A stretch of 64,000 nt of DNA, from contig CAWFJP010000023.1 in assembly GCA_963816145.1 (NCBI GenBank), positions 20,156 through 84,155 on the forward strand. Direction: 5' to 3'. This document shows, in pieces, positions 43,926 to 63,976 of this stretch. The notes under the pieces are model-generated. The model saw only the letters and a list, made by a program, of their open reading frames with translations. It made no database searches and had not been told where the DNA came from. How positions within the stretch are numbered: position 1 is the stretch's first letter; each line of letters begins with the position of its first letter. The stretch is from an uncultured delta proteobacterium. GTDB taxonomy: Bacteria; Desulfobacterota; Binatia; UBA9968. The translations under genes were made by a program, and so were the position numbers.

Positions 43926-45299
43926 CTATAGCCGCTGCTGATCAGTAATTTGAGCCTGCTTCGAATCGACTTCTTGGGCCAACTGCCGTATCACCGGGGA
44001 GATTCGTACCGGATATTCCGCCGCGCGTTCCAATCCTCTCAGCGCATCGGGCAAGCGATCTAGTTCGCGCAAAGCGCGGGCGCGAGCATCATTGAGCGGC
44101 ACGGGTGGGCCGATTCTTCGTCCCCTGCTCATCACTGGTTGGAGCAAGGCTTCGCCGTCGACCCGATCGCCATCCAACGTCAGAATATCGCCGGCCATTC
44201 GCCCATCGCGCTCGTAGCTGCGAATGATTTGCTTCCGACCGGGCCAAAGCACTTTTCCTTCTGACCGTTTGCGCCGTGCACGTCCGGCGTATTCCACGAG
44301 TTTGTACGCGCAGTCCAAATAAGGCGCGTCGGCCGAGGTATCCATATGCGTGCCGATGCCGTAGCCGTCAATGGGAGCGTTCTGCTTTACGAGCCGGGCA
44401 AGGACATACTCATCCACGCTGCCGCTGGCGAAGATCGTCGCGTCTCTGAGACCGCCGTCATCGAGAATGCGCCGCACCTTGAAGGCGTGGTCGGCCAGGT
44501 CGCCGCTGTCCAAACGAACGCCTTTGATCTTGATGCCATCGCGCGCCAGCTTGGGCGCCAGCGCGACGACCTTTTCTGCGGCGGCTTCGGTGTCATAGGT
44601 ATCGATCAAGAGAATCACATTTCCCGGCAGAGAGCGCGCGAAATGTTCGAAGGCGGTAGTCTCATCGTCGTGCGCCTGAACGAAGGAATGCGCCATGGTG
44701 CCGAAAACCGGCACGCCGTACAGCGGCGCGGCTAGAACCGTAGCGCTGCCCGCAAACCCAGCGAGATAGCTCGCGCGGGCAGCGAGCAAACCCGCCTCGG
44801 CACCATGAGCGCGGCGCAGACCAAAATCGACGAGTAATTTACCGGGAGCCATCAACACCGAGCGCGCAGCTTTTGACGCGATAAGAGTTTGGAAGTGGAG
44901 CAAGTTAATCAACCGGCTTTCCACCAGCTGAGCTTCGGCGATCGGCGCAGTCACGCGCAGGATCGGTTCGTTGGTGAAAAACACGGTCCCTTCAGGCATA
45001 GCGTGGACGGCGCCAGTGAAGCGAACTTGTTCCAAGTAGTTGACGAAGCCGGGGCGAAAAGCGCCGTGATTTGAAATCCAATCAAGCTCTTGCGCTGTAA
45101 ATCGCACGTTCTCAAGAAATTCGAGCCCCTGTTCCAGTCCGGCGGCGATCAGAAAGTTTCGCTGGCCCGGCAACTTGCGCACGAAAAATTCAAACACTGC
45201 GGTCTCCTCCATGCCCTGATCGAAGTAACCCTGCAGCATGGTGAGCTGGTAAAGATCGGTTAACAGCGCGCTTGACGACGCGTTTGACTCAAATATCAT
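43926..45299 (-). CDS. pncB: Nicotinate phosphoribosyltransferase
   Basis: LLTDLYQLTM, AQLVE, DFGLRRAHG, GTMAHSFVQ, LIDTYDT, GVRLDSGDL, YKLVEY. Confidence 0.96.
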   Translation of the reverse strand: MIFESNASSSALLTDLYQLTMLQGYFDQGMEETAVFEFFVRKLPGQRNFLIAAGLEQGLEFLENVRFTAQELDWISNHGAFRPGFVNYLEQVRFTGAVHAMPEGTVFFTNEPILRVTAPIAEAQLVESRLINLLHFQTLIASKAARSVLMAPGKLLVDFGLRRAHGAEAGLLAARASYLAGFAGSATVLAAPLYGVPVFGTMAHSFVQAHDDETTAFEHFARSLPGNVILLIDTYDTEAAAEKVVALAPKLARDGIKIKGVRLDSGDLADHAFKVRRILDDGGLRDATIFASGSVDEYVLARLVKQNAPIDGYGIGTHMDTSADAPYLDCAYKLVEYAGRARRKRSEGKVLWPGRKQIIRSYERDGRMAGDILTLDGDRVDGEALLQPVMSRGRRIGPPVPLNDARARALRELDRLPDALRGLERAAEYPVRISPVIRQLAQEVDSKQAQITDQQRL

Positions 45300-45352
45300 T
45301 TCACCTCATCGTGGCTTGCCGCCGCCCCATCGTCCATTTAACTCTGAAAATC

Positions 45353-45367
45353 GCATATGGCGTGCCA
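45353..45367 (-). promoter_or_regulatory. Sigma-54 promoter of pncB
   Basis: Minus strand TGGCACGCCATATGC, close to consensus TGGCACG-N4-TTGC, ~53 nt upstream of ATG. Confidence 0.75.
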
Positions 45368-45866
45368 GCGCATATCGACTCTTAGCGCCACTGCAAGACC
45401 AGGATCACAGGAATACTCCGCGCGTCATTCGCGATTTCAAGAAGTTTAACCGGCCAGCTATATCAAAATTGCAAAAACCGAAGAACGTGATCACTGAGAA
45501 ACATCCCGATCCTCCAGATCGTCAGACTTGGTTTAATGAGTTCAGGTGCGGGCGGCTGTTTGAAGCGAGCTGACCACGATTCGGCTGTCGCTTTACGGGC
45601 TTTGTCCGACGAGACTGGCTGATTGCTAGGATTGCCGCGAACGGATTTGGCATGGCCTAAAATTTGGATGATTGTTAGAAGCAAAATACAATCCTGAAGC
45701 CCGGCAAAATCGCTACGCGACGCGCTGTGGTTGGCTGGGAATGCTTACCGAACCGCACCGCCCCCCGGAGCGGCAGTGAGTTATGGGCTAAGGGCACTAA
45801 ATGCGCCGAGGCGAAATATGAGGCGCTACTAAGCGGTTCTTTAACGCCCATTGGGAGGACACGCAC

Positions 45867-46530
45867 ATGAGCAGCCCAGCGGCCAAAGGAAATCAAGCCA
45901 GAACAGAGGTCAATATCCCCGTCAATGGCGTTTTTCTCGAGGGGATTCTTACCGTCCCAATGCATGCCAGAGGGTAACGTGTTATTCGTTCACGGCAGCG
46001 GCAGCAGCCGGCTCAGTCCGCGCAATAATTTTGTTGCCGCGGCGCTTAACCAGGCGAGATTCGCCACCCTGCTCATGGACTTACTGACTAGTCAGGAAGA
46101 CGCCACCTACGACAACCGCTTCGACATTGAGCTGCTCACCCGGCGGCTCGAACGGGCGTCTCAGTGGCTCATGGAGCAACCCGGATGTGCGTCGCTGCCG
46201 ATCGGCTTCTTCGGCGCCAGCACGGGTGCGGCGGCGGCGCTGAATGCCGCAGCGATACTGGGTCCGCTCGTCGGCGCCGTGGTATCACGCGGCGGCCGGC
46301 CGGATCTGGCCATGGACTCTTTGCCTCGAGTGCAAGCGCCGACGTTATTGATTGTCGGCAGCCTGGACGATGTCGTCATAGAACTGAATCAACAGGCGTA
46401 TAGGATACTCAAGAGCGAAAAGCATCTGGCGATCGTTAAGGGAGCGACCCATTTGTTCGAGGAGCCGGGAACCCTGCAAGAAGTAACCCGGTTAGCCACG
46501 GTTTGGTTCAGCAAACACCTCGGACGCTAA
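45867..46530 (+). CDS. Dienelactone hydrolase-like alpha/beta hydrolase (PRTase-associated type; frameshift near 45975)
   Basis: HGSGSSRLSPRN.FVA, RFDIELL..RL, GFFGASTGAAAAL, VVSRGGRPDLA, GATHLFEEPG; GGAGG RBS before ATG 45867. Confidence 0.88.
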
Positions 46531-46593
46531 CCTAGGAATGTTATGCTGGCACAATCGACCTACGGTTAAGCTTCAAAAGGGACGCGCCTTAGA

Positions 46594-48375
46594 ATGGCAC
46601 CAAGGATGTCCAATTCTTCGTTAACCGATACCGCGCCTTCAAGCCGCACTCGATCCGAAACTGCGCGGGTCATTCTCGCTGAACGTTATTTGCGGCGTGA
46701 CGATCACGGGAAAATCATCGAGACTGTTGACGAAATGTTCGTACGGGTCGGACGCGCCGTCGCCCAGCCCGCCCGTCGCTATGGCGAAGATGTGGAATTT
46801 TGGCAGGAACGTTTTGTCGAACGGATGCGTCGATGCGAATTTTTGCCCAACTCGCCAACTCTGATGAACGCAGGTTTACCCAACGGCCAACTGGCCGCCT
46901 GCTTCGTCCTGCCGGTCGAGGACGACCTCGATTCCATATTCACCGCGCTTGGTCAGATGGCACGCATTCATCAGACCGGCGGCGGCACGGGCTTTTCTTT
47001 CAGTCGCTTGCGCCCGCGCGACGACCGCGTGCGCTCCACGGGCGGGACCACTTCGGGGCCGTTGTCCTTCATGGAACTTTTCGATCAAACCACGGAAGTT
47101 ATTCGCCGGGGCGGCAGACGGCGCGGCGCCAACATGGCGGTGCTGCGGGTCGATCACCCAGACATTGAAGCCTTCATCGACGCCAAGAAGGATGCGCGGC
47201 GGCTGCAGAACTTTAACCTCTCGGTGGGCATCACTGATGAATTTTGGTCAGCGTTGACGCAAGACAAAGCATTTGCTTTACGCAACCCTCGTAGCGGCGC
47301 GATCATCGGCCGCGTCAAAGCCCGCCAACTTTTCAACAAGATTACCGAAGCAGCCTGGATCTGCGGCGATCCTGGTCTGCTTTTTCTCGACGAGATCAAT
47401 CGCGCCAATCCAACACCCGCGCTCGGTGCCATCGAGGCGACCAATCCATGCGGTGAGCAGCCGCTGCTCCCTTACGAATCTTGCACGCTCGGATCGCTCA
47501 ACCTGGCGGCCTTTGCTGCGGACAATGATCTAGACTGGCAAAAATTCGCCGCCGCGATTTACGACGCGGTCGTCTTTCTTGATAACGTGATCGACGCGAA
47601 TCATTACTCATTTCCGGCAATCCAATCGGCAACGCGCCAAACTCGAAAGATTGGCCTTGGGGTCATGGGCCTGGCGGATCTCTTCGCGCAATTGGGTATG
47701 GCCTACGATTCGGAGGCTGCGGTGGCACTTGCAGACAAAATTGCCAGATTTCTTAGCAGTGAAGCTAGAGCCGCCTCCGTTGAGCTCGGGGAAAGGCGTG
47801 ATTCTTTTCCGGCGTTCTCACAAAGTGTGTGGCGGCGGCGTGGGGTTTCGTCGCTGCGCAACGCTACCGCGACCTGCATCGCCCCGACCGGCACCATCAG
47901 CTTGATCGCCGGAGTGTCCCCATCCATCGAGCCATTTTTCGCTCTGGCGCTGTCCCGCCTGGTAATCGATCACCCAGCGCGAACAGAAATGAATCCGCTG
48001 CTAAAAAGCGAGTTGGCAAAGCTAGGAACTTCAGACGTGAGCGATCTCGATATCATCAAACATCACGGTTCGATTCGCGGCTTGAGCCTATTACCCGAGG
48101 CGCTTCGCCGCCGTTTTCCAATCGCTCTGGAAATTTCGCCGCAGTATCACCTGCGGATGCAAGCAGCTTTCCAAACCCATGTCGACGCGGCGGTATCCAA
48201 AACCGTAAACTTGCCGAACCAGGCGCCGCAATCGACGGTCGAAGAGATTTTTACCCTCGCGCGGGAGTTGCGGCTCAAGGGTGTGACGGTTTACCGTTAC
48301 GGTAGCCGCGCGGGCCAGACATTGTCGCTCGTCGAAGACCAATTGCAGCCCGACTGCCGGGAATGCGCGGTGTAA
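46594..48375 (+). CDS. nrdJ: Class II (adenosylcobalamin-dependent) ribonucleotide reductase
   Basis: FLPNSPTLMNAG, GQLAACFV, GGGTGF.FS.LRP, RRGANM, TNPCGEQPL, C.LGSLNL, IAPTGTIS, SKTVN, KGVTVYR.GSR, C-terminal CREC. Confidence 0.93.
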   Translation: MAPRMSNSSLTDTAPSSRTRSETARVILAERYLRRDDHGKIIETVDEMFVRVGRAVAQPARRYGEDVEFWQERFVERMRRCEFLPNSPTLMNAGLPNGQLAACFVLPVEDDLDSIFTALGQMARIHQTGGGTGFSFSRLRPRDDRVRSTGGTTSGPLSFMELFDQTTEVIRRGGRRRGANMAVLRVDHPDIEAFIDAKKDARRLQNFNLSVGITDEFWSALTQDKAFALRNPRSGAIIGRVKARQLFNKITEAAWICGDPGLLFLDEINRANPTPALGAIEATNPCGEQPLLPYESCTLGSLNLAAFAADNDLDWQKFAAAIYDAVVFLDNVIDANHYSFPAIQSATRQTRKIGLGVMGLADLFAQLGMAYDSEAAVALADKIARFLSSEARAASVELGERRDSFPAFSQSVWRRRGVSSLRNATATCIAPTGTISLIAGVSPSIEPFFALALSRLVIDHPARTEMNPLLKSELAKLGTSDVSDLDIIKHHGSIRGLSLLPEALRRRFPIALEISPQYHLRMQAAFQTHVDAAVSKTVNLPNQAPQSTVEEIFTLARELRLKGVTVYRYGSRAGQTLSLVEDQLQPDCRECAV

Positions 48376-48516
48376 TCTCGACCGTCACGGTACCCGGCAA
48401 CCAATCAAGACACCCGGCGTTCAAACACGAATCTTCTTGATCGGGCTGCGCTTAGGCCAAGGATTCTGCTTTCGAGATTAACCCGATCATTCGGTGAAGT
48501 CAGAAAATACCGCATC

Positions 48517-49377
48517 ATGAATTGGCCATTCGTGCAGCGCGTCATCATCATGAGTTTGCTGCTGTGCGGCCTGCTGCACCGGCAGACCTTCGCAGCCAGT
48601 GAGAGACCGATGACAGCAGCCAAGCAACCGGATACTGAAGCGACCGTTTGCGGCACTTTTCGTGAGCCTTTCATGTTTTGGCTGTGGCACAGAATGGCCG
48701 GCGCAGCTGATCCGCAAGCTCTCGTCAATATTCCCGGCTTGGAGCGGCTCACATTTAACACTCGAGACGGGATTACACTGGCCGGCTACAAGCTCGCCGC
48801 CGTCAATCCGACCGCTTATCTCTTGGTCGCGCAAGGCAATGCCATGCTCGCCGATCAACTCATCGCCGACCTGCAGACGTTTCGCGACCACGGCTGGGAC
48901 GTCTATATTTATGACTACCGTGGTTATGGCAATTCACAAGGAAAGAGCCGCCTGGCGGCGATCGTTGATGATTATGGCGAAATCGTGGCTCATCTAAACA
49001 CACAGGGCTATAAGCAGCGCTTGCTATACGGCATCTCCATGGGCGGAGTGATTCTGCTCAACGCGGTGGGAAAGACCGATCTGTACACGCGCTTGGTGGT
49101 CGATTCTTCCCCAGCGCGCATCTCGCACCTCGGCTGCCCGGAACAATATGACCCGGTCGCCCATTTGCCGAACGATGGAGCGCGGGTGATGATAATTTCC
49201 GGCGCACGGGATCGCGTTGTCTCACCTGACCAAATGGACGAACTGCTACGTAGCGCCAGGTCACGTGGCGCTCGGATTCTCCAGGACAGAGAATTCGCTC
49301 ACCCCTATCAGGATTCCTCGATGGCGATCCACCGCCGCCGGCAACGTGAAGTAGCGACTTTTCTCGATCACGAGTGA
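48517..49377 (+). CDS. Exported alpha/beta hydrolase
   Basis: YDYRGYGNSQG, nucleophile elbow GISMGG, G.RD.VV, His in FAHPY. Confidence 0.8.
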   Translation: MNWPFVQRVIIMSLLLCGLLHRQTFAASERPMTAAKQPDTEATVCGTFREPFMFWLWHRMAGAADPQALVNIPGLERLTFNTRDGITLAGYKLAAVNPTAYLLVAQGNAMLADQLIADLQTFRDHGWDVYIYDYRGYGNSQGKSRLAAIVDDYGEIVAHLNTQGYKQRLLYGISMGGVILLNAVGKTDLYTRLVVDSSPARISHLGCPEQYDPVAHLPNDGARVMIISGARDRVVSPDQMDELLRSARSRGARILQDREFAHPYQDSSMAIHRRRQREVATFLDHE

Positions 49378-49424: not shown

Positions 49425-50633
49425 TCAGCAAATCGAATACTTGCCGCTCGCCAACTCTTGGCAGAACTGTGGCATGCGCTCCAGCTCGCGTTTGACGATT
49501 TTGCCGATGGGCTCTTCGACGTTGACAAGTTGAGTTGCGGCATCCAGCGCGACCTGCACCGCGACCACTTGCGGGCGCTCGACCGGGTCGCCGATACGGC
49601 TACACAGCCAGACAATCGCTTGTTCGATGCCGGGAACTTCAACGTGAATCTGTTCGGCCAAGCGATGGGTTAAGACGCTATAAATTTTGCCGACATGGCT
49701 CACCGGATTCTTTCCCGCGGCAGCTTCGGATCCGCGCGGACGATTGAGCGCGATAATGCCGTTGACCTGATTGCCTCGCCCCACTTCGCCGGAATCGGCA
49801 TCTTCAGCGGAAGTGCCGAGCACGGAGAGATACATTCCCGTTAGTCCGGCGCCGCGACGGTCCAAGGTGTTGAGCTCGACAGTGACCTGATTAAACTTGG
49901 CCGCCTGGGAGCGCAGATACGCGATCAGCGCGTGACATATTTCGTCTTTCTTCTGGAAATAAGCCGCTTCGTCGGCGATATACTTGTCCAACAACGGCAT
50001 CGCCGCGGTGATGCCGATTTGCTTTCCGCGGCGAATTCCCATGATCTTCACGTCTGTGCCGCTTTGCGGGAATTTCATTTTGAACTCGCGGCCGTTCAAA
50101 CATCTTTCGGCGTCCAAAACCAACCGCTCGGCCTCGCTCAACGGCGCGTACCCCACCGCCGCCGATGTGTCATTGGCCGGAATAATTTCGGAGCCGGGCC
50201 GAAAAATTCCGGTCAACTCGTCGGAGCCGCCTTTGAGCTCGACCTGATACCGAAGATGTCGTTCGGCATCGACTTCGGGAATATTCTCGCGAAACCAAGT
50301 CTTTGCAGTTTCTATAGCCAGTTCGGCAACATTGAAATCTTGCACCATCGTCGCCCGATCGCCGATGACCAGGCGCATCGGTTCGACCACTTTGCCGCCG
50401 CCGTAGCGCCGCTCCACCTGTCCCGCGACCAGCAAACCTTTGTCGCAATTGTGGTGGAGAATTCTGCCGTAATGCTTGAGATACGCTTGCGACAGGGCTT
50501 GAGAAATCCGCTCCATGACCAGATCGCACATCGTGTCGGGATGGCCCAGTCCTTTGCGTTCGACGATCTCCACATCGGCACCTGCCGCTGGCGGCTCGTG
50601 AATTTGTTGAATATGAATTGGCTCCATGGTCAT
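49425..50633 (-). CDS. mat: Archaeal-type S-adenosylmethionine synthetase
   Basis: EIVERKGLGHPDT.CD, HHN.DK, ANDTS..VGYAPLS, G.DVKIMG.R, GTSAE..DSGEVGRGN.VNG, EAAAGKNPVSHVGKIY. Confidence 0.92.
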   Translation of the reverse strand: MTMEPIHIQQIHEPPAAGADVEIVERKGLGHPDTMCDLVMERISQALSQAYLKHYGRILHHNCDKGLLVAGQVERRYGGGKVVEPMRLVIGDRATMVQDFNVAELAIETAKTWFRENIPEVDAERHLRYQVELKGGSDELTGIFRPGSEIIPANDTSAAVGYAPLSEAERLVLDAERCLNGREFKMKFPQSGTDVKIMGIRRGKQIGITAAMPLLDKYIADEAAYFQKKDEICHALIAYLRSQAAKFNQVTVELNTLDRRGAGLTGMYLSVLGTSAEDADSGEVGRGNQVNGIIALNRPRGSEAAAGKNPVSHVGKIYSVLTHRLAEQIHVEVPGIEQAIVWLCSRIGDPVERPQVVAVQVALDAATQLVNVEEPIGKIVKRELERMPQFCQELASGKYSIC

Positions 50634-50988
50634 TCGCGGTCCCGCACCCACGGTACCGGTTTAATCGTAAACCAGCAAAAGACACGCCACCCAGGGAGAG
50701 GCTTACATTGCTGCACATCCCTCACTATCGCCAATCGCTAGCGCCCCCTCATCCATGCAACAACAGCCAAGACTTTTTGCCATAACAAATCGGTGGTCTC
50801 AAAATAGCGAATAATGGAAATGGATGGCAGCACCGCATCATGACGAAAATACCCCTAGCAAAGTGAAGGCGTCATTTTGCTTTTCGAGTATGAGAAGGAA
50901 TTCTTGTATGGTTCGCGACAATGAGAAGCGCTTGCGCGCGCGCCGGTTACGAACTGACTTTTTTGACGGCATCGTGATGCTGCGCGCT

Positions 50989-51003
50989 TGGCATCTCGTT
51001 TGC
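50989..51003 (+). promoter_or_regulatory. Sigma-54 promoter candidate upstream of prs
   Basis: TGGCATCTCGTTTGC (GG-N10-GC with TTGC). Confidence 0.65.
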
Positions 51004-51170
51004 GCTGCTAAAAATCGTTGCAAACGGAGGTGACACCCGCATGGAGCTGTTACGGCTGAGACTGATCTCCCCAGGGTCGCGCGTCAGCTCTGCCGGTGCG
51101 CCAGCCTAATCGGTCAAACCGATCGTCCGGAGAAGGGACGCCAAAGGGGATCAGCCAAATTCTATGATTC

Positions 51171-52106
51171 GTGAAAATCTTGTCAGGCGCTGCGAACCTC
51201 AAGCTTGCAACCGCCATTGCCGCCGCTCGCGGGACCCAGACCGTTCAACGGCGCTTAGAGCGTTTTCCGGACGGTGAACTGCACATCGAGCTACAGGAAA
51301 CCGTGCGCGGCCAGGATGTTTATTTGATTCAGCCGACAAGTCCGCCGGTGGACGAGCATTTGTTCGAACTGCTCCTTCTGGCCGACGCCTGCCGCCGGGC
51401 CGGAGCGGCGCGGCTCACCGCGGTGATCCCCTATTTTGGCTATGCTCGGCAAGACCGCCGTGCTCACGGCCGGGAGCCATTGAGCGCGCGGCTAGTTGCC
51501 GAGTTGATTCAAGTCAGCGGCATTGAGCGGATCGTCACAGTGGATCTCCACAGCCGCGCTGTCGAAAGCGCTTTTGCCATTCCGTTAGAGCACCTAAGCG
51601 CGGTTCCCATGCTGGCCAAAGCGGTTCGCCCGGCGCTTAATCGAAACGCCGTGGTGGTCGCCCCGGATCTGGGCGCCGCGAAAATGGCCGAACAGTACGC
51701 CGACCTGCTCGACTTGCCGGTGGCGATCGTTCACAAGACCCGTATCAGCGGCGAACAGGTAAAGGTTCAGCGAATCATTGGCGATGTGCGCGGCAAAGAA
51801 CTGCTGGTTGTCGACGACATGATCAGCACCGGGGGCACCATCGAGAAAGCGATCCAGGCGCTGCTGGGAGCCGGTTGCTCATCGTCCGGCATCAAAGTTT
51901 TGGCAAGTCACGGGCTATTTGTTGGGGCGGCAGCGGAACGGCTCAGCGCCTTGGCGATAGACGAGTTGTACGTTTCCGATAGTGTGCCGGCCCCGGAGCA
52001 GTTTCCCTTGCCGCTCCAAGTCGTGTCGCTGGCACCACTCCTTGCAGACGCGATTCATTGTCTTAACGAAGATGAATCGCTTGCCCGTATCATCGCCGCT
52101 AAATAA
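51171..52106 (+). CDS. prs: Ribose-phosphate pyrophosphokinase
   Basis: FPDGE, VRG.DVYLIQ, VIPYFGYARQDR, VDLH, VVAPDLGA, LVVDDMISTGGT. Confidence 0.95.
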   Translation: MKILSGAANLKLATAIAAARGTQTVQRRLERFPDGELHIELQETVRGQDVYLIQPTSPPVDEHLFELLLLADACRRAGAARLTAVIPYFGYARQDRRAHGREPLSARLVAELIQVSGIERIVTVDLHSRAVESAFAIPLEHLSAVPMLAKAVRPALNRNAVVVAPDLGAAKMAEQYADLLDLPVAIVHKTRISGEQVKVQRIIGDVRGKELLVVDDMISTGGTIEKAIQALLGAGCSSSGIKVLASHGLFVGAAAERLSALAIDELYVSDSVPAPEQFPLPLQVVSLAPLLADAIHCLNEDESLARIIAAK

Positions 52107-53278: not shown

Positions 53279-55948
53279 CTAGGCCGACGCCGTCTTCGCA
53301 GCGCTTTGCGCCGCGGCCCCCGCTTGCGCCTCGTCATGGGCTTGAACGCTGAATTTCAGACCGGCAGCTTTGGCCTCGGCGTCGACGGTCACGGTTTCGC
53401 CGTCTTTGACTTCCCCTTTGAGAATGAGCCGACCCAAAACGGTCTCGATTTCTTTTTGGATCAACCGTTTGAGCGGACGGGCGCCGTAATTGGGGTCGTA
53501 ACCCGTGGTCGCGAGATGTTCGCGTGCAGCCTCGGTCAGCCGCAAAGTGATATGCCGGTCATCGAGCCGCTGTTGCAGCCGCCGCAATTGAATATCGGTG
53601 ATCGCTTTGAGGTGTTCACGCGACAGATTGTGGAACACGACAATCTCGTCGACACGGTTTAAAAACTCCGGACGAAACTCGCGCCTGAGCGCATCGAGCA
53701 CCTGCGCGCGCATGGGCGCGAACGCCGCGGCATCGTCGCGCCCGCGGTAGTTGGCGATCAAATGGCTGCCGACGTTAGAGGTCATGATCACCACCGTGTT
53801 CTTGAAATCGATGGTGCGTCCATGGCCGTCGGTGAGCCGTCCGTCATCGAGGATCTGCAACAAGACGTTGAACACATCCTGGTGCGCCTTCTCGATTTCA
53901 TCGAATAACACGACGGCAAAGGGCCGCCGCCGCACCGCTTCAGTGAGTTGGCCGCCCTCTTCGTAACCGACATAACCCGGCGGCGCGCCGATCAGCCGCG
54001 CCACGGTATGTTTCTCCTGATATTCCGACATATCGAGGCGGACCATATTGTTTTCATCATCGAAGAGAAATTCCGCGAGGGCGCGGCCGAGCTCGGTCTT
54101 GCCGACGCCGGTGGGACCCAAAAAGATAAACGAGCCGATCGGTCGGTTGGGATCTTTGAGCCCGGAGCGGGCGCGCACCACCGCGTCGGCCACGGCCTCG
54201 ACAGCTTCCTCCTGGCCGACGACGCGCTTGTGCAGGTGCTCGGGCAGACGAAGCAGTTTTTCCTTTTCGCCTTCGAGCAATCTTGACACCGGGATGCCGG
54301 TCCAGCGCGAGACTACAGATGCGATATCGTCTTCATCGACCTCCTGTTTGAGCAATTGCATACCGCCGCTCTGGCGCAAGCGCTCTTCCTCGGCCGCCAG
54401 TTCCCGTTCGAGTTGGACCAGCTTGCCATACTTGAGTTCGGCCATGCGGTTCAGATCGTAATCCCGCTCGGCCTGTTCCATGGCGAGTTTATTTTTTTCG
54501 ATCTCCTGCTTGAGACTGTTGAGCCGGCCGATGCCCTGCTTTTCCACTTCCCAACGAGCGCGCAATTGACTCTGTTCGGCTTTTAATCCCGCCACCTCGC
54601 TTTCCAACTTAGCCAAGCGCTCGCGCGAAGGCTTATCCGTCTCCTTGCGCAGCGCTTCCCGTTCGATCTCCAGTTGCATGACCCGGCGCGAGACCTCGTC
54701 CAGCTCGGTGGGCATGGAGTCGATCTCGGTGCGCAACTTGGCCGCCGATTCGTCCACCAGATCGATCGCCTTATCGGGCAAGAAGCGATCGCTGATGTAA
54801 CGATGGGACAACACCGCGGCGGTCACCAGGGCCGCATCTTTGATGCGCACGCCATGGTGCACTTCATAGCGTTCTTTGAGGCCGCGCAAAATCGAAATGG
54901 TATCCTCGACATTGGGCTGATCGACCAACACGGGCTGGAAGCGCCGCTCTAGGGCGCGGTCCTTCTCGACATATTTGCGGTACTCATCCAACGTGGTTGC
55001 GCCGATGCAATGAAGCTCGCCGCGCGCCAACATCGGCTTGAGCAGATTGGACGCATCCATGGCGCCTTCCGCCGCGCCGGCACCGACCACCGTATGCAGC
55101 TCGTCGATGAACAGAATCACATCGCCTGCGGAATCCTGCACCTCTTTGAGAACCGCCTTCAGTCGCTCTTCAAACTCGCCGCGGAACTTGGCGCCGGCGA
55201 TGAGCGCACCCATGTCGAGAACGATCAAGCGGCGATTTTTAAGACTCTCAGGCACGTCGCCGCGGATAATGCGCTGCGCCAGGCCTTCGACAATCGCCGT
55301 CTTGCCGACACCGGGATCGCCGATCAGCACCGGGTTATTCTTGGTCCGGCGCGAGAGCACTTGGATAATCCGCCGGATCTCATCGTCGCGACCGATCACA
55401 GGATCGAGTTTGCCTTGACCGGCCAACTTGGTGAGATCGCGGCCGTAGCGCTCGAGCGCTTGATAGGTCGTTTCAGGATTGGGCGAGGTAACCCGCTGGC
55501 TACCGCGAATTTTTTTAATCGCCGCCAGCAGCCGCTCGCGGGTTAAACCCAGAGGCCGCAGTAGCCGCGCCACCGCACTACGCTCATCGGCGATCATGGC
55601 AAGAAGCAAATGCTCGACGCTGACATACTCGTCCTTGAGAGCCTTGGCTTCGTCTTCGGCCAGGGCCAGGAGTCGCGCCAACCCCTGAGTAAAATACACT
55701 TGCTGGGCTTCCATGCCCGGCCCCGATACCTGCGGCATCGCATTGAGCTCCTGCTCAACTCGTTCGCGCACCGCGCTCGGGGCAATGCCCGCTGCGGCGA
55801 GACAACCGGCAGCCAAGCCTTCCTTTTCTTCCAGTAGCGCCGCCAAAAGATGTAGTGAATCAATGCCCTGGTGATTACGGCGAACAGCCAACTCCTGCGC
55901 GCTGCGCAACGCTTCCTGGGATTGCTCCGTCAAACGATTGAGATCCAT
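53279..55948 (-). CDS. clpB: ATP-dependent chaperone ClpB
   Basis: Two AAA+ modules ([16 protein letters not shown]), DKAIDLVDE, coiled-coil middle domain, GARPLKR. Confidence 0.97.
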
Positions 55949-56130: not shown

Positions 56131-56145
56131 TGGCATACGCTTTGC
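56131..56145 (+). promoter_or_regulatory. Sigma-54 promoter for the DksA-BON operon
   Basis: TGGCATACGCTTTGC, 27 nt upstream of ATG 56173. Confidence 0.72.
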
Positions 56146-56172
56146 CATTGAATCTTGGCAATAGGTGATTTT

Positions 56173-56946
56173 ATGAACAAAGAACAATTGGCAGCGGTAG
56201 GCCAGCTCCTGCGCCACCAACGCAATCACTTTCTTCAGGAATTCCGTAGAGCGGAACAAGGTTTGGACGCGATTGCCGAGGAGCGCGAAAGTGAGCTCGA
56301 AGAGCATGCCCAGGAAGAACAGACTGCGCGACTTTTGACCCGTCTCGACGACCAGACGCTATGCGCAATAAAGGAAATCGACGCTGCGCTGCAAAAAATT
56401 CTCGACGGTACCTACGGCAAGTGCGAGGCTTGTCACAAGCCGATAGCGATCGCCCGTCTCCGCAGTTTACCGGCAGCCCGTTGCTGCAGGCGCTGCGCCG
56501 CCAAGAACGAGTCGCGGCCGATCAGCCCCGGTGGCGCCGCCGAGACGCCGGCCGTAGGGCCTATTCCAGCCGACCTGAACTTGCTGAGTGACCAGGAGTT
56601 GACCGAAGCGATTAACGAGCACCTGAAGGAAGACGGCCGGATCGACGTGGAAGAATTGCATGTCGCTTGCCGTAAAGGCGTCGTCTACCTGTCCGGCGTG
56701 TTGCCCAGCGAAGCGGAGCATCAGATCCTGCTGAGCACCCTTACCGATGTCATGGGTTTGCAAGCGCTTGTCGATCATTTGGCGATCGAAGAGCTGCTTT
56801 GGCAAACCGAAAAGCGCACGAAAGAGGTTGGTCCGGAGACGATCACCCGCTGGCAAGAGCCGCCTGGGTCCGAAGATATCGTCGAGAGCATGGATGAGGA
56901 CAAGGAATTTGTCGCACCGGCGAAGCCCACGCCCAACGAAGAATGA
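56173..56946 (+). CDS. TraR/DksA C4 zinc-finger protein fused to a BON domain
   Basis: IDAAL.KI..GTYGKCEAC..PI..ARL..LP.A.CC..C then BON-like L.EDGRID...L.V....GVVYLSG. Confidence 0.85.
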   Translation: MNKEQLAAVGQLLRHQRNHFLQEFRRAEQGLDAIAEERESELEEHAQEEQTARLLTRLDDQTLCAIKEIDAALQKILDGTYGKCEACHKPIAIARLRSLPAARCCRRCAAKNESRPISPGGAAETPAVGPIPADLNLLSDQELTEAINEHLKEDGRIDVEELHVACRKGVVYLSGVLPSEAEHQILLSTLTDVMGLQALVDHLAIEELLWQTEKRTKEVGPETITRWQEPPGSEDIVESMDEDKEFVAPAKPTPNEE

Positions 56947-56974
56947 AAAGACACTGACCAACCGGCGCACACAG

Positions 56975-57916
56975 ATGAATAACCAATTGGTGGGAAACAC
57001 TGTGAATTTCCGCGTTGCGCGACGCCTTGAAGAAGTCGCGCAAATACTAGAGTCGCAGGGCGCCAACCCGTTTCGGGTGCAAGCCTATCGACATGCGGCG
57101 GAGACCCTCAGGCACCTTACCCGCCCGGCCGATGAAATCCTTCGCCTAGAGGGTGAACCGGGGTTGCGCAAGCTGCCCGGCATCGGTGAGCGGCTCGCGC
57201 GCTCGATTGCAACGTTATTGATTACTGGAAGACTGCCCATGCTCGATCGGCTCCGCGGCAAGGGTGAGTCGGGGGCATTACTCGCTTCTGTCCCAGGGAT
57301 TGGCAAAAGTCTGGCCGCGCGACTGCACCGGGAACTTGGCATCGATACTTTGGAACAGCTTGAGTCCGCCACACATGACGGAAGGTTAAGAGCGATCACC
57401 GGAATCGGCGACAAACGAGTCGCCGGGATTATCGACTCCCTTTCGGCACGGCTCGGCCGAGTGCGCCCGATCCGTACCGCGCACAAGGCCACCGATGCAG
57501 CCATCGCTGAAATCCTTGATGTCGACCGGGAGTACCGCCACAAGGCGGCAGCCGGCGCCTTGCCGACCATCGCGCCGCGACGCTTCAATCCGAACCGTGA
57601 AGCGTGGCTGCCGATCCAGCATTCAAACCGAGGCGAGCGGCACTACACGGCGTTGTTTTCCAATACGGCGCGCGCCCACGAAATGGGTAAAACCAGGGAC
57701 TGGGTGATACTTTACTACGATGGCCCGGACGGAGAACGACAGTGTACTGTGATCACCAGCCAGCGCGGTCCGCTCATCGGCGAGAGAATTGTGCGCGGAC
57801 GGGAAAGCGAATGTCTTGAGTACTATCGGCAAGCGCACGTTCACGGCGTGCCGACCGATGACACAAAACAAGACATTGACAATCCGCAACCGGCTCCGCA
57901 CCGCGCCGCTGGATAG
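56975..57916 (+). CDS. PolX N-terminal/helix-hairpin-helix DNA-binding protein with uncharacterised C-terminal domain
   Basis: LE.QGANPFRV.AYR.AA, LPGIG, VPGIG..LA.RL..ELGI.TLEQLE.A.HDGRL..I.GIG; no palm or PHP domain. Confidence 0.85.
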   Translation: MNNQLVGNTVNFRVARRLEEVAQILESQGANPFRVQAYRHAAETLRHLTRPADEILRLEGEPGLRKLPGIGERLARSIATLLITGRLPMLDRLRGKGESGALLASVPGIGKSLAARLHRELGIDTLEQLESATHDGRLRAITGIGDKRVAGIIDSLSARLGRVRPIRTAHKATDAAIAEILDVDREYRHKAAAGALPTIAPRRFNPNREAWLPIQHSNRGERHYTALFSNTARAHEMGKTRDWVILYYDGPDGERQCTVITSQRGPLIGERIVRGRESECLEYYRQAHVHGVPTDDTKQDIDNPQPAPHRAAG

Positions 57917-58377: not shown

Positions 58378-59484
58378 ATGACGCGAACTTCTGAAAACCT
58401 CACCCACGACGCTCAGGGGAGCGCACTGGACCCTCCCCTGCACGCGCTAATCGAGGCCACGCAAGACGCGGTGATCTTCATCGATCGGCAAGCCCGCATC
58501 GTTATTTTCAATCCCGCCGCTGAAAACATTTTCGGCTACTCGCGAGCCGAAGCCCTGGGGCAGAAGATCAATAAACTCATGGCCGAGCCCTATGCCAGTG
58601 AACATGATCGGTATCTCGACCATTACGAAAAGACCGGCGAGCAGCGCGCGATTGGCCGCATCCGCACCGTCGCGGGAAAGCGCAAAAATGGCGAAACCTT
58701 TCCAATCGAGTTATCGGTAACGCAAGTGGCTTCTGGCGCCGAGGTCAATTATGCAGCGTTCATTCGAGACATTTCGGACAAGGTCAAACACCAGCGCGAA
58801 CTCACTGAAAATGCCCGGCTGGCATCCATTGGCGCGACCGTCGGCAAGCTGACCCATGAGATTGGCAGTCCCTTGAACGGCATGTATATCACGGCTCAAC
58901 TCCTGGAGCGTATAGTCAAGAAGCCGATAAGCCTGCCGGACGAAAAGATCTCGTCAACGGTCAATTCACTCCTGCGTGAGATCCAACGTCTCAATTCACT
59001 GTTGAGCGAGTTTCGCGCCGTTTCCCGCGCCGAACATTATGATTTCAAACCCGTGTCACTCCCTGCCGTGATCGGCGACGTGCTTTCCTTGGAACGGCCG
59101 CACTACTTCAACCGCGGCGTCCGCGTTAATCAGCTCGTTCCCGCCGACCTGCCGATCGTCATGGGAGATGCCGACAAACTCAAACAAGTGATCCTCAATC
59201 TTTGCAATAATGCGGTCGACGCGATGGCCAACGGCGGCGAGCTGATTCTGCGTGCCTCCACTGACGATCGACACGCGGTTGTCGAGGTCGCCGATACCGG
59301 CGAAGGCATTCCGCCTGAACTTAATATCTGGGCGCCGTTCATGACCACCAAGCGCTCGGGCACCGGGCTTGGATTGACCATCGTGCGAAATATCGTCACC
59401 GCTCACCATGGAACCATCGACTACACCAGTGAAGTGGGCAGAGGGACAGCTTTTCGGTTGGCGCTGCCGCTAAGCACGAACTGA
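58378..59484 (+). CDS. Cytoplasmic FixL-type heme-PAS sensor histidine kinase
   Basis: LM.EPY.SEHD.YL.HY..TGE.R.IG..R.V.GKRK.GETFP.ELSV (FixL PAS signature with proximal His); HEIGSPL, NAVDAM, DTGEGI, GTGLGL. Confidence 0.85.
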   Translation: MTRTSENLTHDAQGSALDPPLHALIEATQDAVIFIDRQARIVIFNPAAENIFGYSRAEALGQKINKLMAEPYASEHDRYLDHYEKTGEQRAIGRIRTVAGKRKNGETFPIELSVTQVASGAEVNYAAFIRDISDKVKHQRELTENARLASIGATVGKLTHEIGSPLNGMYITAQLLERIVKKPISLPDEKISSTVNSLLREIQRLNSLLSEFRAVSRAEHYDFKPVSLPAVIGDVLSLERPHYFNRGVRVNQLVPADLPIVMGDADKLKQVILNLCNNAVDAMANGGELILRASTDDRHAVVEVADTGEGIPPELNIWAPFMTTKRSGTGLGLTIVRNIVTAHHGTIDYTSEVGRGTAFRLALPLSTN

Positions 59485-59503: not shown

Positions 59504-60352
59504 CTAGAGTGCGCTCAAGCCGCGCACGACGCCCTCGCACACTTTTGCCATGAAGTCGATGTCCAGAGTTTCGATTGAATCTGTGGCGCCGTGGTAGTGG
59601 GGATTGCGATAAAAAGAGGTGTCGGTAATCATCAAAGCCTCATACCCCAAATCCCAAAACGGCGCGTGATCGCTCAAACGGACGGCCGGGATCAGCGCCC
59701 CTTTGCCGGGAACCGACAGAGTCTCCACCTGAAGCTTTGACACCTGGCGCATGCCGGCAGCAAACTGATGCAGCAGCGCATTCGATTGCCAATTGCCGAC
59801 GACACCAATGAAATCGCCTCGATCGGGGTAGAAGCGGTCGAGGCCGACGGGTAGTTTCTGACTGCCGGGCCGAGGGTCCGTATAACCAACCATTTCCAGG
59901 GAGATCATCGCCTGGATTTTCATCCCGGCGGCCTTGAGTTTTCGGGCGAACGCGGTGCTGCCAATCATGTTGAGCTCTTCGAGATTGAAGGCACAGAAAA
60001 GCACTTGCGTTGCCAAAGCAACCTGAGCGAGCAACCGCGCAGTTTCTAGGAGAACCGCTACACCGCTGGCATTGTCGTCGGCGCCTGGCGTACCGACCAC
60101 CGAATCGAAGTGCGCTCCAAGAATTACCAGCGGTTCTTCGTCTCGCGGGCGCCGTCGCGCAACGATATTGTGAAAGGTTTCACCGGCGTAAGAAAAGGAA
60201 TCACTTTCGGTGTCGAGACCGTAGCTTGCGAATTCCGCCTTTATGAACTTTGCGACTGCGGCCAAGTGCCGCGCGCCACTAAAAGGACTCCTCTCGCCGA
60301 CAATGATTTGCAGATGGCGGTTGAGCCGCTCGCGATCAACGTCGATCTTCAC
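59504..60352 (-). CDS. M28-family peptidase
   Basis: ILGAHFDS, PGADDNASGVA.LLE, FNLEE, SLEMVGY, SDH.PFW..GY.A.MITDT.F.RNPHYH. Confidence 0.9.
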   Translation of the reverse strand: MKIDVDRERLNRHLQIIVGERSPFSGARHLAAVAKFIKAEFASYGLDTESDSFSYAGETFHNIVARRRPRDEEPLVILGAHFDSVVGTPGADDNASGVAVLLETARLLAQVALATQVLFCAFNLEELNMIGSTAFARKLKAAGMKIQAMISLEMVGYTDPRPGSQKLPVGLDRFYPDRGDFIGVVGNWQSNALLHQFAAGMRQVSKLQVETLSVPGKGALIPAVRLSDHAPFWDLGYEALMITDTSFYRNPHYHGATDSIETLDIDFMAKVCEGVVRGLSAL

Positions 60353-60718
60353 GGAGAGCTTCGCTATCGTTACACCGGACTCTCAACGTAACCCGCTCAG
60401 CAGTCAGCGACATCAACGGGAGCATCACTGCCGGAAAAATCGCCCAGCAACAGCGAAAGCTCCGGGTAGTGAACGGGTTTCAGCAAATGGGCGTTGAAGC
60501 CAGCATTGTGTAGCATTTGACTCGTTCTAGGATTCGAAAAGGCTATTTTACGAGGTTATCTTTGTCAACTTCTGAATCAGTTTACCTTTTGATGACAGGA
60601 TCCTTGTTTAGCATTTTCAAAAACCAAGGTGAGGCTTCTGGCTCGCCCACCGACAATCGGCAATGCGTTGCTCAGCCGGGAAAAATCGGCCATAGTCCGT
60701 CCGTGGCGTCGTGAACGT

Positions 60719-62791
60719 ATGAAGACAGGCGAGTTTTTCAATCTCTACAATCACGGGTTCATCCGTGCCGCAGTCGGCGTTCCAGAAGTCCGGGTGGCTG
60801 ATCCTGCGTTTAACGCGGAACGGACTATCGAGCTTATGGAAAAGGCCGTGCTGGAAAAGGCCATCCTCGTGCTATTTCCGGAGTTGGGGTTATCGGCTTA
60901 TTCCTGCGAGGACCTCTTTCACCAACAGGCATTACTCGACGGCGCGCTTGACGCGCTGCGACGCGTTCTTCAGTCCTCTGCGGCGTTAAATTTGGTTACT
61001 ATAGTAGGAGTCCCACTGCAGGTTGATGACCTCCTGTTTAACTGCGCGGTCATAATTCAGCGCGGTAAAATTCTTGGAATCGTGCCCAAGACATTTTTGC
61101 CCAACTATCGAGAGTTTTACGAATATCGACAGTTCGCCCCGGCGAGCGCGGCCCATAGCAACGTTGTCGAAGTTCTTGACCAGCGAGAAATTCCTTTTGG
61201 GGAGCACCTACTTTTCCGCTGTGAAGAAGTGCCACGGCTGACGTTTTTCGTCGAGATTTGCGAAGACCTCTGGGTGCCCATCCCGCCTTCGTGCACCGCC
61301 GCCCTGGCCGGAGCCACGGTTCTCCTCAATCTCTCCGCTTCAAATGTCACGATTGCCAAGGATGAGTACCGCCACAGCCTGGTCGCCAACCAATCGGCGC
61401 GCTGCTTGGCCGCCTATCTTTACGCTGCGGCCGGAACCGGCGAATCGACCACCGACCTTGCTTGGGACGGGCACGCCATGGTTTACGAGAATGGATCTCT
61501 GGTCGCCGAGTCGGAACGATTCAGCTATGAATCCCAGCTCGTTGTCGCAGAGCTAGATTTGGAACGGCTCACCCAAGAACGAATGCGCCAAAACAGCTTT
61601 GGCCAGAGCATGCAACAGCACCGCGACGAAGTGCGGCAGTTCCGCAAAGTGAGCTTCAGTCTTGAAGTTCCGAGAGCGCAGCCATTGCTTTGTCGGCGCC
61701 AGTTTGAGCGGTTTCCCTACGTACCGTCAGACCCGGAATTGCGCAATCGGCGCTCCTACGAGGCCTACAACATCCAGGTACAAGGGCTGGTGAAACGCCT
61801 TCAGAGTGCTCGCCTATCGAAAGTGGTTATCGGTATCTCCGGCGGTCTGGATTCAACCCATGCTCTCATCGTAGCCGCCCGAGCCATGGACCTCCTGGGG
61901 CTGCCTCGGCCGAATATTCTCGCCTACACCATGCCTGGTTTCGCCACCAGTCAGCGCACTTTGGCAAATGCCAAGGCGCTCATGGAAGCGGTGGGCTGTA
62001 CCGCCGAAGAGATCGACATTCGTCCAAGTTGTGAACAGATGCTGCGCAACATCGGGCACCCATACGCGGGCGGTGAACCTGTCTACGACGTAACGTTTGA
62101 AAATGTTCAGGCCGGAGAACGAACCAGCCACTTGTTTCGGTTGGCCAATCTTCATCAGGCTCTTGTCGTCGGAACCGGTGATCTCAGTGAACTCGCTCTG
62201 GGCTGGTGCACCTACGGTGTGGGCGACCACATGTCGCATTACAACGTCAATGCTAGCGTGCCAAAGACGCTGATCCAGTTTCTGATCCGCTGGCTCGCTG
62301 ACACAAACCAATTAGGCGAAAAGACTAGCCTGGTCCTGCGTTCCATACTCGACACCGACTTTAGCCCGGAACTCGTTCCCGGCGATCCGAACGGCGAGCA
62401 ACCGACGCAGAAAACCGAGGATGTCATTGGCCCTTATGAGCTTCAGGACTTTACTCTCTATTATACCGTGCGCTTTGGTTATCCACCCTCTAAGATAGCG
62501 TTTCTCTCGTACTGTTGTTGGCACGACCGTACGTTGGGACATTGGCCCGACATCTCCGAGACCAGGCGAAATCAGTACACGATCGCCGATATTAAACACT
62601 GGTTAGCAGTTTTTGCCTGGCGGTTTTTCCAGATAAGCCAGTTCAAGCGAAGCTGCATACCGAACGCTCCCAAGGTTGGCTCGGGCGGTTCCCTCTCGCC
62701 CCGCGGCGATTATCGCGCGCCCAGCGATAGCGAAGCCACAGTTTGGCTCGAAGAGATCAAACAGATCCCCGATCACGAGTCCACGCGCTAA
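60719..62791 (+). CDS. nadE: Glutamine-dependent NAD+ synthetase
   Basis: Nitrilase-like domain ([22 protein letters not shown]) plus [38 protein letters not shown]. Confidence 0.96.
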
Positions 62792-63059
62792 CCGTCGGTC
62801 AAAACAACCTTCGCATCAGAAACCGCGTCCTTGCCTTGAAGAAAATAGCCGCGGCCTCGATCGCTCTCATTCGGCGATGAAATGGCTGGCATGATTGCCG
62901 ATGCGAGAATCGTCCCGCACGCCGCGACTATCAAGCGTCTCTTCATTCGGCTCTCCTGCTTTTTATTTTATCGGTTGATGTTCATCGCACGACCCTTTTA
63001 AATCGGGTAACTTTCTACATAATTCACAACGAATTGACGATTTCTGGGGGTGATACACT

Positions 63060-63976
63060 TCATCCCTTGGCGGGAAGATCTGGGCGCACAACCAGCACTG
63101 GATTAGCCGCGTGCCGCACCACCGTCTCGGTCACGCTACCCAACACCCAACGTTTCACACCCGACCGGCCGTGCGAGCACATGACGATCAAACTCTTCGG
63201 TGTCTGCTCTGCGATGGACACAATCTCATCAGCCGCAATCCCCTCCTGGAGCAGATAGGAAACCTGCTCGACGCCGCGCTTTCTCAGCTCAGCCATTTTG
63301 GCTTCGAGATAGTTGCGCGCCTGGTCGCGGATGTCTTTCATCAGCTCATCGACATTCACGGCATAGTGTCCGCCACCGCTGATGAATCCGCTATAGGGGT
63401 TGCTGTAAACTCGGATCAAGAACACTTCGAGACGAAGTTTCCTGGAGATCCGGATAACGGTCGGTAGCACGGTTTCCGCCAATTCGGACCCATCCAACGG
63501 GACAATGATCGATGATAAACTTGCTACCTGATTGGCTTCACCCTCATGGTCAGCTCTGACGACCAACACGGGATTCGTCGTCGCGCGCAAGACTTTCTCG
63601 GCCACGCTCCCTAACAACCACCGGTTCAAGCCGGAACGGCCATGCGTGGTCATCGCGATAAGAGTGGCTTTACCCGCTTCGGCTTTTTTGACAATCAGTT
63701 CTGCCGCCCCACCTTGCTCGATGCTCCGCCTCACTCTGCCACCGACAAAGCGACCGGAGATGCGCTCGAGGTAGGTCTTGCTATCGCGCGATCATTGTTC
63801 GACCAGTTTGTCAAAGTGGCGTGCCAAATCGGCGGACGTAAGTAACGTCTCGACATCGACCACCGCCAGCAGGATCCACCGGCAGTTTAAAGCTCTCGGC
63901 AAAAGCACGCGCCCATGGCAGCACTTGCTCTGCGGTTTTCGAGCCGTCAAGCGGTATCAGTAAGTCTCGTGAACAA
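63060..63976 (-). CDS. Tandem-domain universal stress protein (5' part disrupted by apparent indels and a stop)
   Basis: LIPLDGSKTAEQVLP near 63960, THGRSGLNRWLLGSVAEKVLR, IIVPLDGSELAE.VLP, SHGRSGVKRWVLGSVTETVVR. Confidence 0.85.

Follow-up and report, generated by a model that had tools for sequence, protein, structure and literature searches.

According to passages of one report, the genes Rv0569-Rv0574c form block 2 of the DosR regulon of Mycobacterium tuberculosis, in which Rv0571c is a putative phosphoribosyltransferase (PRTase) (PMC5309233); passages of another describe NrdZ and pncB2 as peripheral and patchy DosR genes that were probably acquired horizontally (PMC4428469). In the diderm Burkholderia cenocepacia, lxa is a low-oxygen-activated locus for which the authors, in the part of the paper considered here, note an overlap with DosR (PMC3721108), and in Myxococcus xanthus, NmpRSTU, as outlined in part of its description, leads from a haem kinase through an NtrC-like activator to sigma-54 and to a hypoxia-responsive regulon that includes universal stress proteins (USPs) (PMC11841059). 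Here, a 20-kb gene island was analysed in a stretch of 64,000 nucleotides (nt) from an uncultured member of the Binatia, the whole of which is referred to as the window. An original prediction, made from the letters alone, had read this island as a DosR-like dormancy module rewired to sigma-54 and to a FixL-type sensor, and portable between phyla. That interpretation was partly supported: the island appears to be conserved in its lineage and driven by sigma-54, and it overlaps mycobacterial dormancy islands in gene families and, for its ribonucleotide reductase (RNR), also in clade.

The window corresponds to positions 20156-84155 of contig C23 of a 7.8-Mb genome in 31 contigs (completeness estimate 99.5%, contamination estimate 6.7%), and its OmpA and OprB genes are consistent with a diderm organism. 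At least half of the sampled words of this genome were present in 16 DNA runs from wetland, soil and sediment metagenomes. Binatota have been characterised as aerobic methylotrophs and alkane degraders (PMC8262859). A DosR-like gene set wired to sigma-54 and combined with enzymes for nicotinamide adenine dinucleotide (NAD), phosphoribosyl pyrophosphate (PRPP) and S-adenosylmethionine (SAM) was not found in the literature searched, which does not establish its absence.

Extra gene copies and sigma-54 type promoters in the island

Genes were called between 43.9 and 64.0 kb of the window from an open reading frame (ORF) listing combined with Pfam and NCBIfam profile scans. Every gene that the original prediction had named in this interval was present, as follows.

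43926..45299, minus strand: pncB, nicotinate phosphoribosyltransferase (NaPRT), extra copy (NF006696, 657 bits, cut-off 503)
45925..46530, plus strand: 201-amino-acid (aa) DLH-type alpha/beta hydrolase, 63 nt upstream of the RNR gene on the same strand (weak Pfam DLH match, E 1.1e-4)
46594..48375, plus strand: class II (B12) RNR of 593 aa without ATP-cone, NrdZ-type clade (TIGR02504 NrdJ_Z, 655.7 bits, cut-off 399.95)
48517..49377, plus strand: second alpha/beta hydrolase (Hydrolase_4), 286 aa (Pfam)
49425..50651, minus strand: archaeal-type methionine adenosyltransferase (MAT) (PF01941, E 6e-146; NF003363, 575.5 bits, cut-off 557)
51041..51109, plus strand: 22-codon ORF with a Shine-Dalgarno sequence, between a sigma-54 motif and prs, possible leader (read from the sequence)
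51171..52106, plus strand: prs, PRPP synthetase, extra copy (Pfam, NCBIfam)
about 52138..53257, plus strand: CapA-like PGA_cap gene, frameshifted (Pfam)
53279..55948, minus strand: clpB disaggregase, extra copy, divergent from dksA-BON (Pfam, NCBIfam)
56173..56946, plus strand: DksA/TraR zinc finger fused to a BON domain, dksA-BON (Pfam, NCBIfam)
56747..57916, plus strand: PolX-like protein (PolX-N), recognisable only in its 8-kDa and fingers helix-hairpin-helix part (Pfam, PolX alignment)
58378..59484, plus strand: orphan PAS-HisKA-HATPase kinase with a FixL-like PAS domain (profile and FixL comparison)
59504..60352, minus strand: M28 peptidase (Pfam)
60629..62791, plus strand: nadE, glutamine-dependent NAD synthetase, extra copy (Pfam, NCBIfam)
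63060..63963, minus strand: tandem USP at the contig end, disrupted in the assembly, with a USP ORF at 63060-63734 (Pfam)

Curated NCBIfam models were passed by pncB, the RNR (TIGR02504), the MAT (NF003363), prs, clpB and nadE, and no Pfam family was matched by the C-terminal 145 aa of PolX-N or by two ORFs of 162 and 96 aa. Residues 88-244 of PolX-N align to residues 4-162 of Thermus PolX, and the true start of this protein is probably near 57000.

When the window proteins were compared by tblastn with the contigs of the source genome, second copies were detected for pncB (contig C5, 47%), prs (C2, 39%), clpB (C13, 64%), nadE (C11, 27%) and the RNR (C10, 27%), and a bacterial-type MetK is encoded on C11 besides the archaeal-type MAT of the island. 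The second alpha/beta hydrolase (48517-49377) had no paralogue in the genome by the same search. The prs gene of C2 lies in the classical ispE-prs-L25-pth setting, and no strong sigma-54 site was located in promoter position around the paralogues. Separate housekeeping copies, for which a check had been proposed together with the original prediction, were in this way found for prs, clpB and nadE, with the bacterial MetK, and also for pncB and the RNR. The other NAD synthetase (C11:63391-65206) is formed by two adjacent ORFs, CN_hydrolase and NAD_synthase, and not by one fused gene. The RNR of C10 is also of class II (Ribonuc_red_2_N plus TSCPD, 958 aa), and NrdB was not found in this genome at 99.5% completeness, so that the oxygen-independent supply of deoxynucleotides that had been proposed as a function of the island does not single out its RNR.

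Motifs of the sigma-54 -24/-12 type were found in front of four units of the island.

45353..45367, minus strand: TGGCACGCCATATGC, 68 nt before the pncB ATG
50675..50689, minus strand: TGGCGTGTCTTTTGC, before the MAT gene, 38-56 nt before its start
50989..51004, plus strand: TGGCATCTCGTTTGCG, before prs, 52 nt to the 22-codon ORF and 182 nt to prs
56131..56146, plus strand: TGGCATACGCTTTGCC, 42 nt before the dksA-BON ATG

The pattern TGGCRY-N5-WTGC was matched 8 times in the window against 2.07 expected, a number reached in 0 of 100 shuffles, and 4 of the 8 matches fell within these 20 kb, all of them between genes and in the right orientation, at 38-182 nt from the start codon that follows. 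In a weighted scan, the four island sites were four of the five best-scoring sites of the window, with 225 such sites in the whole genome (7.82 Mb). All four show GG at -24 and GC at -12 with the fixed spacing and precede a gene, and the genome contains rpoN and 34 strong sigma-54 activator genes. The rewiring to sigma-54 was therefore supported for pncB, for MAT, for prs-capA and for dksA-BON. When 2 mismatches were allowed in a loose sigma-54 pattern, 31 matches were obtained against 32.4 expected. Boxes of the FNR/CRP type were matched 37 times against 22.6 expected, spread across the window, and the sole site with 1 mismatch, at 57970, was not tied to any promoter of the module.

A 14-bp palindrome, TGGACYTWRGTCCA, was observed separately, with 8 strand-matches where 0.01 would be expected, up to 1 mismatch being allowed (window positions 282, 21742, 21934, 29637 and 37653). 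All its sites belong to the upstream portion of the window and are found close to the beginning of a PAS-sigma54 activator gene, close to a TPR gene and between a DUF3300 gene and a FixJ-like regulator gene, and they probably represent the transcription-factor site of another regulon.

Conserved linkage and relatives in other genomes

The closest relative of the island RNR (70%) is encoded by G152, a related metagenome-assembled genome (MAG) titled Candidatus Binatia. Its MetK is 91% identical to that of the source genome, compared to 65-71% in four sampled genomes of the same class, and G152 is therefore close kin. On a single G152 contig, a stretch of about 35 kb carries clpB (88%) divergent from dksA-BON (61%), a PRTase gene (67% to a gene on contig C1 of the source genome) adjoining the pncB orthologue (78%), a sigma-70 gene, an NtrC-type activator gene (83% to that of C1), BON, CBS, a ferritin-like gene and an RNR gene. 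Another contig holds USP, S30AE-CSD, RtcA, CBS, FtsH, prs (71.5%), an intact CapA-like gene (71.7%) and a nitroreductase gene. The FixL-like kinase (74%) is encoded directly upstream of nadE (84.5%) in G152, with no M28 peptidase between them, and the MAT gene (68%) and archease-RtcB are transcribed divergently, with two tandem USPs and a P-type ATPase in the vicinity. Taken together, the island genes are found in G152 in changed order and on several contigs. The promoter motifs could also be followed: 15 of the 16 letters of TGGCATACGCTTTGCC are kept before dksA-BON, where the remainder of the spacer differs, and the 16-mer TGGCATCTCGTTTGCG is identical, but it precedes archease-RtcB there, divergent from MAT.

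These data bear on one alternative explanation of the island, a chance neighbourhood of ordinary housekeeping genes. Each enzyme is central in metabolism, no operon spans the set and the strands alternate, as such an explanation would have it. However, the grouping goes beyond chance because second copies exist elsewhere, in classical housekeeping contexts, and because the same genes are linked in the related genome; with four sigma-54 motifs also in promoter positions, we consider a chance neighbourhood very improbable.

Two genes of the island are interrupted. The CapA-like gene has a +1 frameshift at about 52861-52867, with 7 nt where the intact, 71%-identical G152 homologue has two codons; no indel was listed at this place in the contigs of two DNA runs, and the frameshift could represent either a pseudogene or an assembly error. 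In the tandem USP, the frame shifts near 63876 and is also interrupted by an in-frame stop near 63781, both within 250 bases of the contig end, and the N-terminal part (63735-64000) is in another frame. The base at 63876 is missing from contigs of two other metagenomes, one of which differs at 26 of 432 positions there, and the contig end may be a collapsed USP repeat.

PRTase-DLH fusions of 410-460 aa form a very large family, and their C-terminal half shares 60-68% identity with the 201-aa hydrolase. Among its scored relatives, 7999 of 8000 candidates had E <= 1e-10, and PF00156 was present in 116 of the 120 longer relatives listed. The fusion architecture of the Rv0571c type was not found in the window protein, which corresponds to the hydrolase half alone. 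Two other fusions were observed among the longer relatives, DLH with PGA_cap (556 aa) and DLH with USP (389 aa), and they tie the CapA-like, DLH and USP families together.

In the class Actinomycetes, a close RNR (54-55%) was detected in only 2 of the 401 genomes sampled, in both cases inside an island with hallmark families of the DosR regulon. The first of these islands, mycobacterium-like, contains S30AE, RtcB, a 455-aa PRTase-DLH fusion to which the window hydrolase is 58% identical, baeRF, WS/DGAT, HSP20, the RNR with an ATP-cone, M50-CBS and PE-PGRS. The second contains USPs, GAF, M50-CBS, the RNR, HSP20 and WS/DGAT and, 15 kb further on, pncB, baeRF, DLH, S30AE and hemerythrin. In 401 genomes of a small-genome class, an RNR about 50% identical was present in 148, and this type of RNR is thus common in that class.

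Phylogenetic trees were obtained for the RNR (23 rows) and for pncB (9 rows), with support given as UFBoot / SH-aLRT. The RNRs of the window and of the Binatia MAG are sister to those of the two actinomycete islands (100/99), followed by an RNR encoded beside a CapA-like gene on a metagenome contig (98/99), and this group is separated from NrdJ sequences of Coriobacteriia, Dehalococcoidia, Planctomycetota and other taxa, in a tree of small sampling whose actinomycete rows deviate in composition. In the pncB tree, the two Binatia copies, a MAT-linked copy and the island-linked copy of the actinomycete G1206 form one clade (100/100), to which the other actinomycete pncB do not belong. Inside this clade nothing was resolved, and the island pncB does not group more closely with the actinomycete island copy than the second pncB of the genome does. 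Of the DosR-type gene set that had been proposed, the presence of the families, the clade-level grouping of the RNR, the kinship of the DLH-type hydrolase and the common clade of the window pncB and the island-linked actinomycete copy were upheld, whereas a relationship closer for the window pncB than for the second copy was not.

The original prediction had also described the gene set as a kit shared across phyla, and a mobile genomic island that moves between phyla as one block would fit several observations: the patchy RNR clade (2 of 401 sampled Actinomycetes genomes), the CapA-like subfamily on 18 plasmid or chromid records from several phyla, the fusions of DLH with PGA_cap and with USP, and the view, published in the passages of PMC4428469 referred to above, that mycobacterial NrdZ and pncB2 were acquired horizontally. 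However, another gene of the module was found at only 1 of 24 loci of RNR relatives, that one in the Binatia MAG. At 80 metagenome loci of CapA-like genes, DLH was present in 10, the C1-type PRTase in 7 (8 at a looser cut-off), prs in 3, BON in 2, the RNR, M28, USP and PolX-N in 1 each, and pncB in 0; at the 26 loci of at least 8 kb, DLH was present in 5. A close CapA-like gene occurred in 7 of 401 Actinomycetota genomes, with a DLH-type hydrolase 5.5 kb away in 1 and the RNR or pncB nearby in 0. GC is uniform across the window (0.53-0.60), no integrase was seen in the 20-kb region by Pfam scan, and the genes are scattered over several contigs in G152. Transfer as one block is therefore improbable, and the neighbourhood survey that had been proposed upheld the idea only for parts of the set, as sub-modules recur widely but the 20-kb set was not found as a unit.

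The recurrent sub-modules join CapA-like genes to PRTase and DLH, DLH to RNR, and MAT to other members. Unbiased clustering of the neighbours of CapA-like genes gave nitroreductase (3 loci), RtcB (3) and acetyl-CoA synthetase (5). Among the contexts of three plasmid-borne CapA-like genes, related neighbours were found only on a Methylocystis plasmid (nitroreductase, a small alpha/beta hydrolase and PolX). The archaeal-type MAT was present in 12 of 150 other genomes of the phylum, and in 11 contexts it was adjoined by PolX-N in 2, by pncB in 1 (with a PRTase 3 kb away) and by a DksA-like gene in 1. In unrelated genomes, too, PolX or PolX-N genes were repeatedly found close to a CapA-like or an archaeal-type MAT gene. 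The survey points to a trio of proteins of unknown function that travel together, CapA-like, PRTase and DLH-type hydrolase, adjacent in metagenome contigs; thousands of PRTase-DLH fusions exist, and DLH is fused to PGA_cap or to USP in a few cases. As the trio stands here beside enzymes of NAD and PRPP synthesis, a role in nucleotide or NAD-related recycling becomes testable.

FixL-like kinases and the candidate signal

The PAS domain of the island kinase matches the haem domains of FixL (B. japonicum) with an E value of 1.9e-26. Equivalents of the proximal His (His200) and of the distal Arg (Arg220) are kept, whereas the two other pocket positions differ, with His at position 206 and Arg at position 214, in the numbering of the FixL pocket (200, 206, 214, 220). 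A paralogue on contig C1 (55%) keeps His200, Arg206, His214 and Arg220, and its gene is directly upstream of that of a REC-sigma54-HTH_8 (NtrC-type) activator (C1:82995-84353). The island kinase did not reach the curated FixL family, for which it scores 190 bits (NF041777, cut-off 850), less than for AtoS. Of the FixL-type sensor proposed originally, the PAS match, the His and Arg and the HisKA and HATPase domains could thus be maintained, whereas the curated FixL score and a FixJ partner could not.

The paralogous kinase is located in a second stress region (C1:6600-94800). This region was observed to hold a USP, an ArsP permease, an adenosine-specific kinase, four tandem USPs, HSP20 and a divergent pyruvate:ferredoxin oxidoreductase (PFOR), and also a PRTase with CBS, the FixL-like kinase with the NtrC-type activator, BON, two CBS genes and a rubrerythrin-like gene. 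A sigma-54-type site precedes each of three units, HSP20 with the four USPs that follow it, PFOR, and BON, and 13 of the 22 strong sites of this type on C1 are in its first 90 kb. The PRTase of C1 is 36-43% identical to CapA-linked PRTases; it is a separate gene, on a different contig from the island DLH.

Directly upstream of the island, at 37761-42211, the window encodes a StyR/FixJ-like LuxR-type regulator (58 bits to DevR, 200 to StyR) and a 1270-aa kinase with several PAS domains and a periplasmic part resembling ABC substrate-binding proteins, and paralogous pairs occur on contigs C24 and C31. No link between this pair and the island was found.

With moderate confidence, we read the locus as one of several sigma-54-rich stress-survival islands, with enzymes that keep small-molecule pools and that remain silent until an NtrC-type activator acts, low oxygen being the likeliest signal by way of the FixL-like kinases. 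At least four units would be transcribed from -24/-12 promoters: pncB; MAT; leader-prs-capA; and dksA-BON, perhaps with polX-N. Promoters of this type would therefore leave them silent until the sigma-54 holoenzyme is remodelled by an ATP-dependent NtrC-type activator. The likeliest input would be low oxygen (or nitric oxide or carbon monoxide), read by FixL-like haem-PAS kinases: the orphan kinase linked to nadE, and the C1 paralogue, encoded upstream of the NtrC-type activator and beside islands of HSP20, USP, BON and CBS. When growth stops, the island enzymes would keep the pools of small molecules alive. NaPRT, PRPP synthetase and glutamine-dependent NAD synthetase would amount to Preiss-Handler NAD salvage with its own PRPP supply, and the NrdZ-clade B12 RNR and the archaeal-type SAM synthetase would complete the enzyme set, beside ClpB, DksA-BON, a PolX-like DNA-binding protein and the CapA-like, DLH and USP proteins.

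Several results weigh against this proposal. No response regulator adjoins the island kinase, and the LuxR-type regulator encoded nearby resembles StyR/FixJ and has another kinase, with several PAS domains, as its partner. The window scans detected no sigma-54 motif before DLH-RNR, clpB, the kinase, nadE or USP. No enhancer common to 14 promoter regions was found when exact palindromes with half-sites of 4-5 nt were compared with shuffles; only divergent pairs that share the same DNA exceeded the shuffles, and shared 9-mers were weak. With 34 activators in the genome, the responsible one was not singled out. The CapA-like gene and the USP are broken in this assembly. As the other RNR is also of class II, oxygen does not explain the extra RNR.

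Transcript libraries were also considered. Contig pieces nearly identical to pncB, DLH, RNR, prs, clpB, dksA-BON, PolX-N and nadE were present in two soil metatranscriptomes. Such contigs show presence alone, not level, strand or condition, and the stretches without cover (MAT, the second hydrolase, the kinase, M28 and USP) are uninformative; the contigs may, moreover, hold DNA, and they provide no contrast between oxic and anoxic conditions, which also weakens the case for low oxygen.

Heat or proteotoxic stress would be an equally good fit for ClpB in the island and for DnaK, FtsH and HSP20 in the sister islands. The island could accordingly belong to a sigma-54 regulon that responds not to oxygen but to heat or proteotoxic stress or, more generally, to starvation and stationary phase, with the FixL-like kinase serving another target. 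The S30AE hibernation factor and RtcA/RtcB, which like DnaK, FtsH and HSP20 stand behind similar motifs in the sister islands, would suit such a regulon, as would the enhancer search, in which no kinase-activator-promoter link emerged, and the oxygen independence of both RNRs. Against it, two FixL-like haem-PAS kinases are tied to the islands, one of them linked to nadE in two genomes; the oxygen-sensitive PFOR shares a divergent sigma-54 region with HSP20-USP; and, outside the lineage, the nearest relatives of the RNR are encoded in islands of the hypoxia (DosR-like) type. We regard this alternative as rather unlikely.

The low-oxygen reading can be extended, tentatively, to Binatia-type soil bacteria at large, which would possess a multi-island dormancy regulon operated through FixL-like kinases, NtrC-type activators and sigma-54, with enzymes (NrdZ-clade RNR, island-type pncB, PRTase, DLH and CapA-like) taken from the horizontally exchanged gene pool that also supplied the DosR 'peripheral' block. 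If this were true, the dormancy toolkit would be older and wider than its regulators, having come independently under the control of DosR, of FNR-type factors and of sigma-54. The dormancy repertoire of mycobacteria would then consist largely of cross-phylum survival enzymes whose regulation was replaced by lineage, which would explain the patchy, horizontally acquired nrdZ/pncB2 block. Uncultured Binatia, which are frequent in wetlands and soils, would thereby be given a specific candidate mechanism by which they survive swings in oxygen.

Comparison with described low-oxygen systems

The island resembles the M. tuberculosis block Rv0569-Rv0574c in that a class II RNR, an NaPRT, a CapA-like protein and a DLH-type hydrolase are encoded within 9 kb, a likeness at the level of gene families. 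Families of the DosR regulon are present both in the window and on contig C1: the sister islands hold USPs, HSP20 and CBS (C1), and G152 adds RtcB, S30AE, nitroreductase and a P-type ATPase. Unlike the DosR block, the island has sigma-54 promoters, a sensor with PAS-haem instead of GAF-haem and no enrichment of the DosR box; its PRTase and DLH counterparts are separate genes on different contigs, and its RNR is without ATP-cone. It also adds MAT, prs, nadE, ClpB, DksA-BON and PolX-N to the set.

The core of the DosR box is GGGAC-N4-GTCCC. In the window, this box was matched 26 times at up to 2 mismatches against 28 expected, and it was absent from the promoter regions of the module at up to 1 mismatch. 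Neither this count nor the LuxR-type regulator next to the island, closer to StyR than to DevR, indicates control by a NarL-family DosR through its box.

The lxa locus of B. cenocepacia is similar as a co-regulated stress locus in which, according to the passages considered, six USPs, alpha-crystallin, 'phospholipid-binding' proteins, a nitroreductase, a class II RNR and a ribose/PRPP-related kinase are encoded. It differs, in the same passages, as a contiguous locus of 50 genes with its own lxa motif, where a class I enzyme has the class II RNR as its backup; NAD salvage, MAT and ClpB are not mentioned in them, and sigma-54 is not invoked.

Compared to the island, NmpRSTU of M. xanthus has, in the portion of its description considered, a globin-coupled kinase and a four-part phosphorelay, and its regulon includes a cbb3 oxidase, hemN and hemerythrin. 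The NmpR box GCGCA-N5-TGCGC was not enriched here (81 matches against 90.7 expected).

In rhizobia, the haem-PAS kinase FixL senses oxygen and ultimately controls sigma-54 promoters; it acts through FixJ, a LuxR-type regulator, with NifA as a separate activator. In contrast to FixL-FixJ, the FixL-like paralogue of the Binatia genome is paired directly with an NtrC-type receiver-activator.

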